Source: a virus. From it: a DNA stretch of 64,000 bases. Under the pieces are notes generated by a model. That model was given only the letters and a program-made list of their open reading frames with translations. It was not told the DNA's origin and did no database searches. Location of the stretch: the IMG/VR virus record IMGVR_UViG_3300029258_002996; one strand, given 5' to 3'. The translations under genes were made by a program, and so were the position numbers. Of the stretch, positions 1 to 6,066 are shown one piece after another (positions within the stretch are counted from its first letter, which is position 1; the number at the start of each line of letters is the position of its first letter).

Positions 1-34
1 GGAAGAGAACTCTAGCGATCCCACGCGCGTGCTG

Positions 35-943
35 CCTCCAACCCTTCTGCTTCTTTTTATCGATTGAAAGACACTCCTCTCCAAAGGCATAGAGCTGGGC
101 CTTCTCCCCTCCAACCCTTCTGCTTCTTTTTATCGATTGAAAGACCTATCCCGGCGCTCGGATAGTGAAACTCCCTCCAACCCTTCTGCTTCTTTTTATC
201 GATTGAAAGTTGATAACGGCGGCGTTGCTGCTCAAAGAGGACCCGCAGCCTCCAACCCTTCTGCTTCTTTTTATCGATTGAAAGTCAGCCCAATAGAAAA
301 TAATACAATGGACGGACAACCTCCAACCCTTCTGCTTCTTTTTATCGATTGAAAGTCGCATCGACAATACGGCCGCAAAAAGAGCGACAATCACCTCCAA
401 CCCTTCTGCTTCTTTTTATCGATTGAAAGAAGTCAGATCGCTCCCGGTAGTAATAGTATAGCCAGGGCCTCCAACCCTTCTGCTTCTTTTTATCGATTGA
501 AAGCCAACCAGCCGAGCGCCAAGAGCACTCGGCCAACAACCTCCAACCCTTCTGCTTCTTTTTATCGATTGAAAGGATTGGGCGGGGGATTCGACTATTG
601 AAAATCTATTCTCCTCCAACCCTTCTGCTTCTTTTTATCGATTGAAAGGTCATTTGCAAATCCCATCCGGAAAATAGTGCTGTCTACCTCCAACCCTTCT
701 GCTTCTTTTTATCGATTGAAAGGGATTGAGGAGGAGATCGACGAGTGGATCGCGCAGCGACCTCCAACCCTTCTGCTTCTTTTTATCGATTGAAAATATG
801 CCGTCCTCCATCAGCAAGGACAGGATGCTGTAACCTCCAACCCTTCTGCTTCTTTTTATCGATTGAAAAAAACTATATGACGAGATCATCGATTGCATAA
901 ACAAGCACCTCCAACCCTTCTGCTTCTTTTTATCGATTGAAAA
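35..943 (-). CRISPR. CRISPR array: 13 repeats of 36 nt, 12 complete spacers (30-39 nt); positions 1-34 are probably a further partial spacer
   Basis: The + strand repeat CCTCCAACCCTTCTGCTTCTTTTTATCGATTGAAAG starts at 35, 108, 174, 249, 320, 394, 468, 540, 613, 687, 761, 834 and 908. The last three copies end in A instead of G. Minus orientation is inferred from the co-oriented cas gene and tracrRNA promoter and is less certain than the array itself. Confidence 0.98.
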
Positions 944-976
944 AGCGGTCTAAAAAACCCTTAGATTTTCAAAGAG

Positions 977-2554
977 CTACTTACTCTTTTTCGAGCGGTT
1001 CGATTTCTTCGACTTCTTACCTTTCTTAAACCCCTGTTTTTTCAGCTCTTCGTCGTAATCATCAACCGACCACTCGCCTTTTCCACGAGCCAACACGTTC
1101 ATCGCGGCCCCGACATCCAGATTCACGTACCTCTCACAGGACACGCAATGCAGAACCCACTTCTTCATCTCGTACTCGATGCCGAACTCTTCGAGCTTCG
1201 AGATGATGCACTGCATCAGTGCGTAGTACGGCCACTCCTGAATCCGATCCCAAACCGCCTTTCCCCCGACCAGCTTCTCCGGCTCGCCATCACGGATCCC
1301 CGAGAAGTCCTCGATGTAGATCTTCCCAATCCCGTGCTTGACGAGGTATTTCACGAAGTTCAAAGCTATCCACTGGTTCTTGGTTCGCCGATAGCCGTTC
1401 ACCATGTTCTCCAAAACCTTGGTCGGCAACAGGACGCGCTTGCGCCCGCGTCCCAATCGACCCGAAGCTTTGGAGTTGTATTGGTACCCTTTCCGCCTGC
1501 TCTGAACCTGCTTCAGGAAAGCCTCGATGTCCCCACCATCGTACATCCACTTCACCCCGTCCTCGGTGACCCCCACCAAGAAGTTCTTGATTCCGCGATT
1601 GATGGCGGCGCACCGTACCCCGTTCGAAACCCCCTTGGGCATCTGATAGGAAAACGAGACGAACCACTGCCCCCGATGGTTCTTCTCCACCTTCGCCGCC
1701 CCGAGCACCCACTCCCCCGACATGATCTTTTCCATCGCATCCCGTTGATACCTGTCCTTCAGGTAAAACGGGATCCGGAACTGCTTGCCACCCGGATGAC
1801 GACCCGCAGCCAGAGAAAGGCAAACCAGGTACTCGTTCTTCTTCTCGCCTTTCTCTATCCGATAGTCCTGCCTACGAATCGGAATCGGGTTCTTGTCTCG
1901 GAACGCAGGGACGCTCCGGCTCCACTGGGTCAGGATCTGAAACCTCTCTTTTTTCCACTTGCTGAAAACAGCGTGACTGAGATCAGCCGCAATCCCCGCG
2001 TTCAGCTCCGGAGCCATCTTCCGAGCCAGCGCGTAGAAGTTCCCCTCCGGAATCGGCCACGCATCCCCCTTCCGGGTAGGAAACCGACCGTGCTCCAGAT
2101 AGAAATCGTCCACGTACTTCCCGTCGATCTCCCACAGCTTTCGAGCAATAGCGTTCGCCGCCCGACAGCACCCCTTTTGCGCCTCGAAGCACGCCTTCTT
2201 CACCGTCAGCTTCTCGGTCTCCTCCTCGCTCCTCAGCTCCTCGGCCCGCTTGAAATCGATCTGGAATTTAACGCATCGAACGATCACGTCGCTCTTCTTG
2301 TACCCTTTCGATTTCCGCTTCCTCTTACCTTCCCCCTCCTCCGGTTTGGCATCCGCAACGGAACCCACGACTCTATGACCCTCCTCCTGGGAGGGCGAAG
2401 CAGAAGGGTTCCCATTTTGGGAAACGTTGGTGAGCGTCGTCGGGCTTGCTTCCCCGCTCGTAGCGGCGTGTCCGAAAACTTCATCACCTTCAGGACGTGG
2501 AGTCGCCCCAGCAGTGGTCGCGGGTTCCGTTCCAGATTCCAAACCTTGCGTCAT
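977..2554 (-). CDS. cas12f: Cas12f (AsCas12f1/C2c10-like, TnpB-derived) effector, apparently nuclease-inactive; true start may be GTG at 2368 (463 aa)
   Basis: Motifs are collinear with AsCas12f1-type proteins: DDFYLEHGRFP, ELNAG, MEKIMSGEW, DGGDIEAFLKQVQSRR, GRGRKR, IYIEDFSGI (RuvC-II E), QEWPYYALMQCIISKLEEFGI, CVSC..NLDVGAAMNV (RuvC-III D). RuvC-I reads AAINRG instead of GIDLG. The stop lies 33 nt from the last repeat. Confidence 0.88.
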   Translation of the reverse strand: MTQGLESGTEPATTAGATPRPEGDEVFGHAATSGEASPTTLTNVSQNGNPSASPSQEEGHRVVGSVADAKPEEGEGKRKRKSKGYKKSDVIVRCVKFQIDFKRAEELRSEEETEKLTVKKACFEAQKGCCRAANAIARKLWEIDGKYVDDFYLEHGRFPTRKGDAWPIPEGNFYALARKMAPELNAGIAADLSHAVFSKWKKERFQILTQWSRSVPAFRDKNPIPIRRQDYRIEKGEKKNEYLVCLSLAAGRHPGGKQFRIPFYLKDRYQRDAMEKIMSGEWVLGAAKVEKNHRGQWFVSFSYQMPKGVSNGVRCAAINRGIKNFLVGVTEDGVKWMYDGGDIEAFLKQVQSRRKGYQYNSKASGRLGRGRKRVLLPTKVLENMVNGYRRTKNQWIALNFVKYLVKHGIGKIYIEDFSGIRDGEPEKLVGGKAVWDRIQEWPYYALMQCIISKLEEFGIEYEMKKWVLHCVSCERYVNLDVGAAMNVLARGKGEWSVDDYDEELKKQGFKKGKKSKKSNRSKKSK

Positions 2555-2638
2555 CGTCTTTCACCCATAATTGCTACGTACCCTACCATCCCTATTCTAC
2601 CAAACGCCGCTCGAAACCAGCGCTTCCGAGATGGCAAT
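2380..2638 (-). ncRNA. Putative tracrRNA (ends approximate)
   Basis: The minus strand reads CCAAC-[18-nt hairpin GTTTCCCAAAATGGGAAC]-CCTTCTGCTTC (2430-2397), complementary to repeat nucleotides GAAGCAGAAGGGTTGG. There is also a contiguous 14-nt match at 2397-2410. It lies downstream of a promoter at 2645-2673. Confidence 0.7.
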
Positions 2639-2644
2639 CTAAGA

Positions 2645-2673
2645 CATATAGCAGAGAGCCAAAAAGCCGTCAA
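2645..2673 (-). promoter_or_regulatory. sigma70-like promoter (phage motif) for tracrRNA/cas12f
   Basis: TTGACG-N17 (ending CTCTCTGC)-TATATG. Confidence 0.7.
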
Positions 2674-2687
2674 GAGAAAATGATCAA

Positions 2688-2909
2688 CTACCTTCCAGTA
2701 GGTACAACCGCCCTGCCGAACACGCTCCTACCGATGTGGAACCTCCCACAAATCGGGCACTGGTACGCCGAGAACCGATACCTGGTCTTCGCCTCCATCT
2801 CAAGCGCCGCCGAAGTCGCCGTCTCCAGGGAGCCATACGAGATTTTCGGCTGCCCATCCTTCCGCCAGTGGCACGGATCCTTCCAGTCAATGCTCACTTC
2901 GAGTTTCAT
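2688..2909 (-). CDS. Small Zn-finger phage protein
   Basis: AYQCPICGRFHIG motif; abuts the upstream gene. Confidence 0.65.
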   Translation of the reverse strand: MKLEVSIDWKDPCHWRKDGQPKISYGSLETATSAALEMEAKTRYRFSAYQCPICGRFHIGRSVFGRAVVPTGR

Positions 2910-3359
2910 TTATTCCCGATGCTTGTCCCGAGCGGCTCTGCGGAGAATGGCGGAGGCGCATATATCTACTACACGACTCGTTGCCTCCGGGTTCGTCTTC
3001 TCCAGCCCCTCCAAAAGACTCGAAAGATTAGGTTCCGGCATGGGCATCAACAGATTGCCGCTACCCGAGATTCTCGAAGTCCCCTTCCCGAGACCTTCGA
3101 TCTCGGGAGCCTCGTAAATCTCAGGCGCAGACCCGAGAATCATCTCGGCAATGGGCGTAAAACGAAGCTCACCATCGTCGGAAGAAACGATACCGAGTAA
3201 CACCACCTCCTCCCCGGACTCCTTGCGCCGGGTCTCCATCATCGCGGCCCCCTGAAGCCCGAAAGCTTCCTCCAGCAGCTCGAAGCTTGCCTCGCATTCC
3301 AACTTCTCGGACTCGTCCATCTCAACCTCCTTGCTGTTTTCACGATTTGGCTCGTCCAT
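2910..3359 (-). CDS. Hypothetical protein
   Basis: 149-aa ORF directly behind the promoter at 3367-3395. Confidence 0.65.
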   Translation of the reverse strand: MDEPNRENSKEVEMDESEKLECEASFELLEEAFGLQGAAMMETRRKESGEEVVLLGIVSSDDGELRFTPIAEMILGSAPEIYEAPEIEGLGKGTSRISGSGNLLMPMPEPNLSSLLEGLEKTNPEATSRVVDICASAILRRAARDKHRE

Positions 3360-3366
3360 CCTCTGT

Positions 3367-3395
3367 CATATAACACAGAGTTTTCGAGAATGCAA
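3367..3395 (-). promoter_or_regulatory. sigma70-like promoter (phage motif)
   Basis: TTGCAT-N17 (ending CTCTGTGT)-TATATG. Confidence 0.65.
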
Positions 3396-3687
3396 CAATC
3401 AAGTGCCTGGCAAGTACCCGTCAAGAAAACCTTCATCTCCGAGATAAATCTTATAACGATTCTATTTTTGAAGCACGATGCAGGTGGGAATTTTTCGAGA
3501 CAGCAGGATCCCCAATACCTACCCAATGGGACCCATTCTTTTCCGAGAGGGTTTTTCGGATTTCCGGGATTTGGCCGGGACGGGTTTGGCAGAGGTCGGG
3601 ATTGGGCGTTCAGTACTCGGAAGGGTTGGGTAGGGATTGGGTGAGGATTGGGAGGTCGTGGCGCAGCTCTACTACCGCTCAGGAGGA

Positions 3688-4624
3688 CCCTTGACGATTC
3701 GGCAAGGGTGGTCGGGGCCGGGGTCGGAGTTGGGGGTTGGGGGGATTGGGGAGGTTCGTGTGAGTTTATGTAGGTTTATGTGAGGAGATTTGGGGATAGA
3801 TGGCAGCCTACCTATATAACTAGAGCAGGGTTTTAGACAGGGAAATGCAAGGTTGAGTTTTTTGAGGCAGATGGGACCAAAAAATTTGGGAAGGGATTTT
3901 TGGAGATTTCGTGAATGATTCCCAGTAGTTGAGCAGTATTGCAAAAGGTTGGGAAGAATGTTGGATGCCGATATATTTTGCGGGGTTGCTCGGGTATTGG
4001 GGGTGATCATAAACCCGCGATCCCCGATCAGATCGCGATCAGATCGCACCCCCGATCCCTACACGATCCCCGATCCGCGATCCCTTATACAATCATTTCG
4101 CATACTTATAGAGATTTCCCCAATGATTCTACAACCTTCGGCAAACCTTGGCCAGAATCCTCGGCCAATCTCTGCCGGAGTCCGCTACAATCCCTGCGGG
4201 ATCCTCATCAACCCCTGCTCAATCCTGGGCAATCCGAATCAGATTGTCGTACAATCATCCACGATCCGGGCCGACCCTTAACGATCCGTCAAGGGCTGAC
4301 CATCCCTGCCGATACGATCCGCAATCCCCAGCAGGAACTGCCCACAATCTGCCCAAACCTGCCCAGTACTTCCCAATCCATTGGGAAAGGATTGGGCAAT
4401 GCGGGGGCAGCTCGGGCAGGCCAGGACAGAGCCTTAACGATTAATCAAGGAAACTTTTGAACCGCCTTAACGATTCGTCAAGGGTGGTTTCGGGCCTATC
4501 TCAAACCTAATCCCCAAACCTTCAAGGATTCCGCACCCTCCTGCAAAACCTCAGATATATCGGGTACAAATACATGAAACGATTTGTCATGGCTTTGGCT
4601 TCGAGGGTGTTGACGAATCGTCAA
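3688..4624. repeat. Five palindromic boxes, consensus TT(G/A)ACGA-T-TCGTCAA
   Basis: Copies at 3688-3708, 4275-4295, 4432-4450, 4465-4484 and 4610-4624. Confidence 0.75.
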
Positions 4625-4952
4625 TTCCGAGGATTCCAGAGGAGTTCTCAACCTTGAGGAATCTCTGGCCAGCTCCGGGCCGATAACTCCTCGATATTTG
4701 AGATAGATCGTAATAGACTTGTCAAGATTTTGGATCGGTTGGCGATCCGAGAGGATCCGCAAAGGAGATTACGTGGGGCTACAGTGGGGGACGAGAGATC
4801 GTGCAGAATTGGGCAAGATTGGATAGATATGCGCCCGCGATCCCGGACGATCCCCGGGAATGGATCGTAGATCGTGGGGAGATGGATCGGGGATTTTTGG
4901 CGGATTTTGGATTTTGATCGGATCGTGATCTGATCGCGGATCGGGGATCGCG
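4019..4952. repeat. Two GATC-dense clusters forming an imperfect inverted pair
   Basis: 9 GATC in 4019-4082 and 6 GATC in 4916-4949; the reverse complement of 4921-4952 resembles 4017-4048. Confidence 0.75.
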
Positions 4953-5016
4953 CTATAGGTCCTCGATCATGCAGTATAACCTAGAACCCCAAACCCCTGC
5001 TCAATCCCTGCCAAAT

Positions 5017-5076
5017 ACTGCCCAACCTACTGCCCAATCTACGGGGCAATTTACTGCCCAACCTACTGGGCAAGGT
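5017..5076 (+). repeat. 5 x 12-bp tandem repeat ACTGCCCAACCT
   Basis: actgcccaacct/actgcccaatct/acggggcaattt/actgcccaacct/actgggcaaggt. Confidence 0.8.
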
Positions 5077-5103
5077 TTGGCAATCCTGGAGCATTAGATT
5101 GGG

Positions 5104-5385
5104 AATCCTTCCTTGAGAATCCGCTAGGTTTCTGTTGAATCCTTCCTTGAGAATCTACTGAGTTCTCCTCAATCCTTCCTGGCAATCCTTCGAGGTTTGT
5201 CGAGCTGGGGGAAAACCTTGCTTACGGCCCTTGGAATTCTGCCAAATCCTTCTTTGAGAATCTGCTAGGTTCCCGCTAAACCCTTTTCTGAGAATCTGCT
5301 AGGTTTCTGTTGAATCCTTCCTTGAGGATCCCGGCTGAGGGTTTGTGGGGGCTGCTGAATCCTTCCTTGAGAATCCTCTAGGGTT
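5104..5385 (+). repeat. Seven iteron-like repeats AATCCTTCCTTGAGAATC(YGCTAGGTTTCTGTTG), ~34-bp period
   Basis: Copies start at 5104, 5138, 5171, 5245, 5279, 5313 and 5358. Confidence 0.8.
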
Positions 5386-5704
5386 TTGCTGGAGGGTTTG
5401 CTTCCTTGGCTTCCTGGGGGTTTGTGGGTCTACTGGTGTACTGGTCTATGGGTTACCTATCTACCTACTTACCTACCTACCTATCTATCTCCCTCTCTGC
5501 TTACCTTAATCCCTCCCCCTCCGGGTCATCCGGTAAAATCCTTCCTTCGTTTTTCCTCGCCGGTCACCTTCCATCTCAACCCATCTCAATCCTCGGGGGT
5601 TTAGGATTGGGGTTTGGGTTGATCTCGAACCTGACTACCTTTGGGATTGGGGATTGGGGGGATTGCCGGGTTGGGATGTATCGGGTGGGGATTGATGTAT
5701 GGGT

Positions 5705-5971
5705 TCAGTTCAACATAGATGGATCGAATGGTTTCATTACTGAGCCAGCTTTCTCCAGCAAAGCGAGGAACGTCCTTGCGTGCTCGATGGCCTTGTCGAA
5801 ATCATCCTTGAAAACTACCAACTGCATAATAACGGCCCCTACCATGAGAATCCCCTGAAACATGTAAATGTTCGGATGGTCGGGATCCATCTGGTGGATT
5901 TCCCTCGCGGTTTTCGTACACTGAGCTTGCCACTCCATGAACAACTTCTTCTGCTCATCCGATACCTTCAT
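5705..5971 (-). CDS. Hypothetical protein
   Basis: GAGGAG RBS before ATG at 5971. Confidence 0.65.
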   Translation of the reverse strand: MKVSDEQKKLFMEWQAQCTKTAREIHQMDPDHPNIYMFQGILMVGAVIMQLVVFKDDFDKAIEHARTFLALLEKAGSVMKPFDPSMLN

Positions 5972-6066
5972 CTCCTCTTCCTCACTTTCCGATCGCCTTT
6001 TTCCGATCAACCTCTTCCCCTACCTTACCAAACCGCAGGACATCGGTTGTATCGTATGGAGATTGA

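Follow-up and report, generated by a model that had tools for sequence, protein, structure and literature searches.

The stretch of DNA analysed here (the window) comprises 64,000 nucleotides (nt) of a virus, IMG/VR record IMGVR_UViG_3300029258_002996. Near its start it carries, on the minus strand, the gene of a Cas12f-like effector followed by a CRISPR array. The minus-strand segment 2343-2545, which lies inside the frame of the effector, is probably the trans-activating CRISPR RNA (tracrRNA) of this phage-associated protein, and it appears to be read through by ribosomes in most members of the family. An earlier reading of the letters, called the sequence-only reading below, had flagged a tracrRNA in the 5′ end of the long cas12f-like open reading frame (ORF). 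That observation is confirmed by covariation within the structure and by covariation of the anti-repeat with the repeat of its own locus; the interpretation attached to it is partly supported. The features in question, all on the minus strand, are as follows.

35-943, minus strand: CRISPR array of 13 repeats of 36 nt with spacers of 35-39 nt, running past the start of the window
977-2554, minus strand: long ORF (525 amino acids, P0001) of the Cas12f-like effector, taken from the ORF list and from similarity to AsCas12f
2343-2545, minus strand: predicted tracrRNA scaffold, inside the long ORF and bounded by the outer ends of its closing stem
2517-2545, minus strand: 5′ arm of the closing stem, an inverted repeat
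2343-2371, minus strand: 3′ arm of the closing stem, which holds the in-frame GTG at 2368-2366
2492-2509, minus strand: hairpin 1 (GGGGCG / CGUCCU), with the 6-nt loop ACUCCA at 2503-2498
2498-2502, minus strand: predicted pseudoknot repeat:anti-repeat segment (R:AR-1), CUCCA, pairing with UGGAG at repeat positions -6 to -2
2429-2488, minus strand: core helices 2-5, containing the conserved motifs GGAAG and CGCUC
2408-2425, minus strand: hairpin A, 18 nt, conserved in place between loci and variable in sequence
2397-2410, minus strand: main anti-repeat (R:AR-2), 14 nt, the complement of repeat segment GAAGCAGAAGGGUU
2378-2396, minus strand: hairpin B (GCCCUCC / GGAGGGU), whose 3′ arm is also the Shine-Dalgarno (SD)-like GGAGGAGGG
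2552-2554, minus strand: upstream in-frame ATG, candidate start of the 525-amino-acid product
2366-2368, minus strand: in-frame GTG, candidate internal start of a 463-amino-acid product
2645-2673, minus strand: promoter-like motif TTGACG-17-TATATG, which fails a consensus scan

The best solved relatives of the effector are AsCas12f chains (E = 3e-24 to 6e-23, residues 132-481), and a TnpB-family model matches at 2e-12, below its curated cut-off. Similarity to Cas12f in the layout of the WED, REC, RuvC and zinc-ribbon parts is found both by sequence match and in an AlphaFold model, the core of which is confident from about residue 90; the folded part begins near 87-90, with a strand at 90-99. 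The D-E-D triad of the nuclease is not intact. The RuvC-I aspartate is replaced by Asn319 (codon at window 1598-1600), and among 112 family members this residue is N in 83, H in 14, T in 7, R in 5, C in 1 and Q in 1, and never D. The RuvC-II glutamate and RuvC-III aspartate are mostly retained in the family, and the first CxxC of the zinc ribbon is missing in the window protein alone. To judge from these residues, the RuvC changes fit RNA-guided binding without cutting.

Fold and conservation of the element

The whole element is surrounded by the closing-stem inverted repeat, in which 29 nt at 2517-2545 are 86% complementary to 2343-2371 and which the sequence-only reading does not mention. 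Inside this stem come first hairpin 1, then a core of four helices, hairpin A, an anti-repeat left single-stranded, and last hairpin B. Helix 2 of the core pairs GGUGA (2488-2484) with UCACC (2433-2429). Hairpin A, GUUUCCCAAAAUGGGAAC, folds at -6.3 kcal/mol and includes the first 3 nt of the main anti-repeat, and hairpin B, GCCCUCC..GGAGGGU, folds at -11.8 kcal/mol. The minus-strand sequence from 2438 to 2397 is as the sequence-only reading had written it, and the 18-nt hairpin and the CCCUCC/GGAGGG hairpin that it had described both fold in the manner proposed. For the 229-nt RNA of the window the folding energy is -97.2 kcal/mol (z = -3.05).

Conservation was followed across the protein family (P0001-P0119), for which a first search had returned 33 homologs and a later one 97 cluster representatives at E of 1e-30 or better. 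The loci retrieved comprised 31 from metagenomes, 3 from genomes and 3 IMG/VR viral contigs of 78-182 kb. About 30 homologous Cas12f-like genes carry a structured RNA at their 5′ end, once each and on the gene strand. Its core of about 100 nt is alignable in all loci and lies just 5′ of the conserved protein start. RNAalifold returns 22 core pairs, 17 of them with compensatory changes; over 20 loci, 93.6% of cells in the core structure are paired, and pairing falls to 32-42% in slid-partner controls. Of 500 shuffles none attains these paired and compensated values, and each of the five covariation measures is higher than in at least 499 of them. The closing stem, 25-35 bp long and of differing sequence, recurs in 20 of 21 loci with z = -5 to -9. 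A profile search with the core gives one match per locus, on the gene strand every time, and the frequent G:U pairs also assign the RNA to the gene strand (minus in the window). Covariation across homologous loci, which the sequence-only reading had named as a check, is present in the fold and at both sites that pair with the repeat.

Two relatives carry the RNA in other arrangements. In locus L023 the tracrRNA is a stand-alone gene (821-1000), placed 1.7 kb upstream of the effector and with a stop in the usual frame. Three ORFs lie between them (L023 1007-2526), a small one that looks XRE/HTH-like and one of 302 amino acids that looks PAPS-reductase-like, both judged by eye, and one of 105 amino acids; the main anti-repeat of this locus pairs with the very end of the repeat. 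In L036, a viral contig, the RNA is circularly permuted (2989-3200), with its 3′ half first. It has been opened at helix 5, has a new closing stem there (z = -7.6) and is in frame with the gene. Downstream in the same contig (L036:4440-4852) is an array-like run with units of about 15-40 nt ending in (G)AGAUGGAGG, in which only the tracrRNA-pairing parts are conserved. Taken together, the permuted, stand-alone and in-ORF forms mark the connector parts of the RNA.

Pairing with the CRISPR repeat

The segment 2397-2410 is a contiguous 14-nt perfect complement to 13 of the 13 repeats, where it faces bases -19 to -6 and would form the R:AR-2 duplex. With up to one mismatch allowed, nothing else in the 64-kb window matches apart from the array itself; the chance expectation is 0.06 in total, and none of 100 shuffles reaches 14 nt. 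When loci are compared at this site, directly after hairpin A, 12 of 14 match their own repeat over 8-14 nt, and the match to the repeats of other loci averages about 5.5 nt. L015, with a truncated repeat consensus, and the divergent L023 do not follow this pattern. The position of this site in the RNA is fixed, and pairing stops 5-8 nt short of the 3′ end of the repeat.

A second site is the 6-nt loop of hairpin 1, whose complementarity to the own repeat covers the final 5-6 nt of that repeat at 16 of 16 loci. The tails comprise six different hexamers, and cross-pairs between loci average 2.8 nt, with 3% reaching 5 nt. The covarying pairs are CUCCA:UGGAG, CUUCC:GGAAG, CCGCAC:GUGCGG, CCUGCA:UGCAGG and CUGCC:GGCAG. 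From this covariation a guide-proximal R:AR-1 pseudoknot between the hairpin-1 loop and the repeat tail is predicted. The element has several marks of a type V tracrRNA of the Cas12f kind: a covarying anti-repeat, a predicted R:AR-1 pseudoknot and a conserved multi-stem scaffold on the strand of the CRISPR RNA (crRNA). The pseudoknot loop (ACUCCA or CCUCCA) also looks like the anti-SD of 16S rRNA, just as UGGAGG, the repeat tail seen most often, looks SD-like; a 4-bp pairing of the SD-like GGAGGAGGG in hairpin B with the hairpin-1 loop is possible. When repeats were compared genome-wide with their loci by RNAduplex, GC-rich loci gave noisy results, chiefly owing to leftover degenerate repeats; the position-anchored tests given here took the place of that scan.

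The sequence-only reading had placed the complementarity elsewhere, in an anti-repeat of 16 nt split by a hairpin. The arithmetic of 5 + 11 nt holds once the hairpin 2408-2425 is left out, and it gains only 2 nt over the contiguous 14. CCAAC plus CCUUCUGCUUC as a conserved split anti-repeat was rejected after comparison between loci. CCAA(N) belongs to the motif CGCUCGCCAA, which is kept whatever the sequence of the repeat, and its CC pairs inside helix 2; CCAAG stands beside a ..GUGCGGG repeat in L007, and CUGAC beside a ..GUUGGAGG repeat in L013. Because CGCUCGCCAA(N) is independent of the repeat, the split reading is an arithmetic coincidence or at best secondary. The actual second anti-repeat is the hairpin-1 loop, about 90 nt upstream, which had gone unmentioned.

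Could the element instead be a cis-regulatory leader, such as an autoregulatory protein-binding site or an attenuator, with an incidental likeness to the repeat? Its place at the 5′ end of a message, its buried start sites and the lack of a relevant Rfam family in a search of window positions 1-6000 at a permissive threshold would all suit such a leader. Two separate segments, however, covary with the own repeat, and their geometry is that of the R:AR-2 duplex and pseudoknot of Cas12f and TnpB (PMC10097598). The window holds no other segment complementary to the repeat, the gap between gene and array is just 33 nt, and L023 keeps the element as a separate gene. A cis-acting leader is for these reasons very improbable, and a tracrRNA is preferred.

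The orientation of the array proposed earlier is also supported. The array is read on the minus strand, as indicated by the strand-specific fold, by arrays that follow the gene in the same orientation, and by conservation of the spacer-proximal part of the repeat. In the window 33 nt separate the effector stop codon from the first repeat, on the same strand, and the spacer-adjacent end of the repeats on that strand is ..GAAGCAGAAGGGUUGGAGG. An array comes directly after the gene, in the same orientation, in about 17 loci, and the repeats of the relatives end ..GGAGG, ..GGAAGG or ..GCAGG on the gene strand. Several arrays (L005, L007, L008, L013, L015, L021, L023 and L024) conserve only the spacer-proximal 14-28 nt of the repeat. 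These are the tracrRNA-pairing parts, and the 5′ part of the repeat drifts. In the window's own array, the three gene-proximal repeats (760-943) begin with U and not C on the minus strand, so that their plus-strand form is ..ATTGAAAA as against ..ATTGAAAG elsewhere in the array; the U-starting repeats could mark one end of the array.

Reading frame, start sites and the fate of the transcript

Between a point inside the 5′ arm and the conserved start of the protein, 19 of 21 loci have no stop in the effector frame, against 3 and 0 loci for the other two frames; in total the three frames contain 3, 29 and 57 stops. In the window alone there are no stops in the effector frame, as against 0 and 5 in the other two. 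The distance from core to protein varies from 52 to 226 nt, and yet 17 of 20 loci share the same value modulo 3. For 19 of 21 loci an in-frame start codon, ATG in 18 and otherwise GTG, falls at or within the 5′ arm, frequently accompanied by an SD motif. Downstream of the RNA, six loci, among them those of the L002, L009 and L022 type, lack any in-frame start. With the frame open in 19 of 21 loci and six loci lacking a downstream start, the RNA is therefore likely to be translated through in most members. The sequence-only reading had taken codons 1-62 as merely apparent coding sequence. The open family frame and its preserved phase speak against this, and they agree with the other option it had allowed, that the RNA overlaps the N-terminal codons.

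In public gene calls the RNA-encoded peptide forms the extreme N-terminus (residues about 1-60) of 49 family proteins, in which ..PRPEGE..GHA..GEASP.TLAN.. is recognisable. This recurrence could point to an N-terminal domain or signal peptide as the conserved feature, with the RNA fold as its by-product, a reading that is scarcely credible given the rest of the evidence. Conservation shows no third-codon-position periodicity, so the test for selection on the peptide is negative, whereas compensatory changes in base pairs are abundant. In L007 and L014 the middle of the element is read in another frame that is still open, and the permutation in L036 reorders the peptide. In the AlphaFold model residues 1-84 have a predicted local distance difference test score of 30-45 and no secondary structure. 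As far as alignments and models can tell, the conserved feature is the RNA and not the peptide.

A different arrangement of the same tracrRNA has more in its favour. The RNA could be an untranslated 5′ leader at this locus, with the effector of 463 amino acids made from GTG 2368 and the 62 codons before it left over from relatives. The strong SD motif GGAGGAGGG occupies 2387-2379, at a distance of 10 nt from the in-frame GTG 2368-2366 (codon 63 of the ORF 977-2554), and that GTG is a plausible start here. The predicted disorder of residues 1-84 is in keeping with a start beyond them. The window frame is open all the same, and open frame and phase are conserved across the family. Moreover, GTG 2368 and its SD motif are base-paired in the folded RNA, the former in the closing stem and the latter in hairpin B, and would therefore be poorly accessible unless the RNA is unfolded. 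In a second metagenome copy of the window locus, contig Ga0180431_10021044 (L001:4005-4217), there is a T-to-C change at window position 2370, two bases before GTG 2368 and at the inner end of the closing stem.

If the tracrRNA is read through, the transcript would serve several purposes. The scan that was run for promoters shows nothing resembling a terminator in the 33 nt from gene to array, so that one transcript would carry the tracrRNA together with the message for the effector and, probably, the array as well. Ribosomes starting upstream would traverse the RNA and, to judge from the open frame, add a disordered N-terminal tail of about 60-90 amino acids, the sequence of which would be dictated by the RNA. 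Once the closing stem forms, the start regions would be occluded, and excision of the tracrRNA would separate the ORF from its upstream start. Because the tracrRNA lies in the translated 5′ end and the closing stem buries start codons, each transcript would have to choose a fate, with maturation of the tracrRNA and translation of the effector in competition. It is thus possible, if doubtful, that the phage transcript is effector mRNA, tracrRNA precursor and pre-crRNA at once. Such a transcript would be translated, or else it would fold, associate with the effector and be excised, for instance through cleavage of the 25-35-bp stem by RNase III. Were this so, the two-fate transcript would be a built-in feedback that sets the ratio of effector to guide, and the nascent effector might load in cis on its own message.

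Several points weigh against this picture and, in part, against read-through itself. The loci are related to each other, so that counts of loci overstate how many events were independent. By the scoring used, no SD-like match of at least 4 nt precedes ATG 2554, as opposed to GTG 2368 with AGGAGG at a spacing of 11 nt, and it is with GTG 2368 that P0002 and P0003, the two closest homologs, line up at their annotated starts. L013 and L025 have stops in the RNA followed by their own SD motif and start; read-through is therefore not obligatory, and an internal start after the RNA is viable. No site passes a scan for sigma-70-type consensus over 850-3500. The promoter proposed by the sequence-only reading, TTGACG-17-TATATG, is present at 2673-2645 and fails the sigma-70 criteria because its -10 hexamer ends in G; it is therefore to be regarded as a motif only. 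Finally, that the closing stem would suit RNase III, that the effector might regulate itself and that crRNA pairing could gate its translation, as the sequence-only reading proposed, are conjectures. On balance the untranslated leader is unlikely, though it is the most serious of the alternatives. Read-through at this locus is given a little over an even chance, its likelihood for the family is much higher, and both the 525- and the 463-amino-acid product are possible in this window.

Directly upstream of the tracrRNA lies an ORF of 73 amino acids (2688-2909, minus strand) with a weak Zn-ribbon match, preceded by an acidic one of 149 amino acids (2910-3359, minus strand). Neither has a counterpart adjoining any of the homologous loci compared.

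Relation to known guide RNAs

The tracrRNAs of small type V effectors are normally sought in the non-coding stretch that separates gene and array. In the family of the window such a search would come up empty, since its tracrRNA is part of the annotated ORF. Once recognised there, it ties the arrays to the effector and gives two pairing sites and a minimal scaffold. It also carries a warning for annotation, as gene calls for this effector family include an N-terminal tail that is dictated by RNA. The kind of RNA, a type V-F-like tracrRNA, is known; its position inside a translated 5′ end with conservation of the frame appears to be new. A literature search of incomplete coverage, which does not prove absence, turned up no paper that places a tracrRNA within the 5′ coding region of cas12f.

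The closest comparison is with the type V-F1 Cas12f1 tracrRNAs of AsCas12f1, SpCas12f1 and Un1Cas12f1. Those characterised are 153-169 nt long and lie between gene and array (PMC8548392, PMC7229846). The RNA of the window is likewise a long multi-stem scaffold, of about 200 nt, on the strand of the crRNA, and a comparison of layouts gives the same bipartite arrangement of R:AR-2 duplex and R:AR-1 pseudoknot. The effector, too, is most similar to AsCas12f (PMC8548392, PMC10097598). It differs from Cas12f1 in having no RuvC-I aspartate, and its RNA differs in occupying the 5′ end of the effector frame and not the gene-array gap. Whereas the anti-repeat of the Cas12f1 tracrRNAs is 3′-terminal, here it is internal and is followed by hairpin B and the closing stem. 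A layout of guide, pseudoknot and stem is conserved among Cas12 guide RNAs, with the R:AR-1 pseudoknot and R:AR-2 stem recurring in the Cas12f single guide RNA and the TnpB omega RNA (PMC10097598).

Inactive nucleases of this lineage are also known. The dCas12f-sigmaE and CRISPR-linked dCas12f proteins described by Hoffmann et al. have inactivating RuvC changes, C-terminal truncations and single guide RNAs, and no tracrRNA-like species was found for them (PMC13472631). They resemble the window effector in being Cas12f homologs, some of them CRISPR-associated, with an expected activity of RNA-guided DNA binding without cutting (PMC13472631). The window differs from the dCas12f-sigmaE systems, which are marked by a neighbouring ECF sigma factor gene and one chimeric guide RNA, and does not belong with them, in that it holds a full CRISPR array and a separate tracrRNA, and neither of its immediate neighbours, the 73- and 149-amino-acid ORFs, has a Pfam or NCBIfam match to a sigma factor. 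If translation and tracrRNA maturation do compete, the arrangement would be a simple form of autoregulation for CRISPR systems that are carried by phages and do not cut.

Guide scaffolds that adjoin or overlap the gene of their own protein are found in the transposon-encoded relatives. The omega RNA of IscB and IsrB is a guide scaffold encoded upstream of the ORF for the effector, within or at the 5′ region of that ORF. It differs from the RNA of the window in serving another protein lineage, that of the Cas9 ancestors, in carrying the guide at its 5′ end and in not being the trans partner of a CRISPR array. For TnpB, processing of its own mRNA into omega RNA has been reported, and this would set a precedent for message and guide being in conflict. 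The omega RNA of TnpB (right-end element RNA, reRNA, of IS200/IS605) is like the window RNA in that the scaffold overlaps the coding sequence of its own protein and has the guide-pseudoknot-stem core (PMC10097598). It overlaps the 3′ end of tnpB, with the guide fused in cis, whereas the RNA of the window overlaps the 5′ end and would receive its guides in trans from a separate downstream array, and so falls outside that class. The use of the same bases as scaffold and as coding sequence at the 5′ end of a gene is a testable case of dual function, and it mirrors the 3′-end overlap of the TnpB omega RNA.

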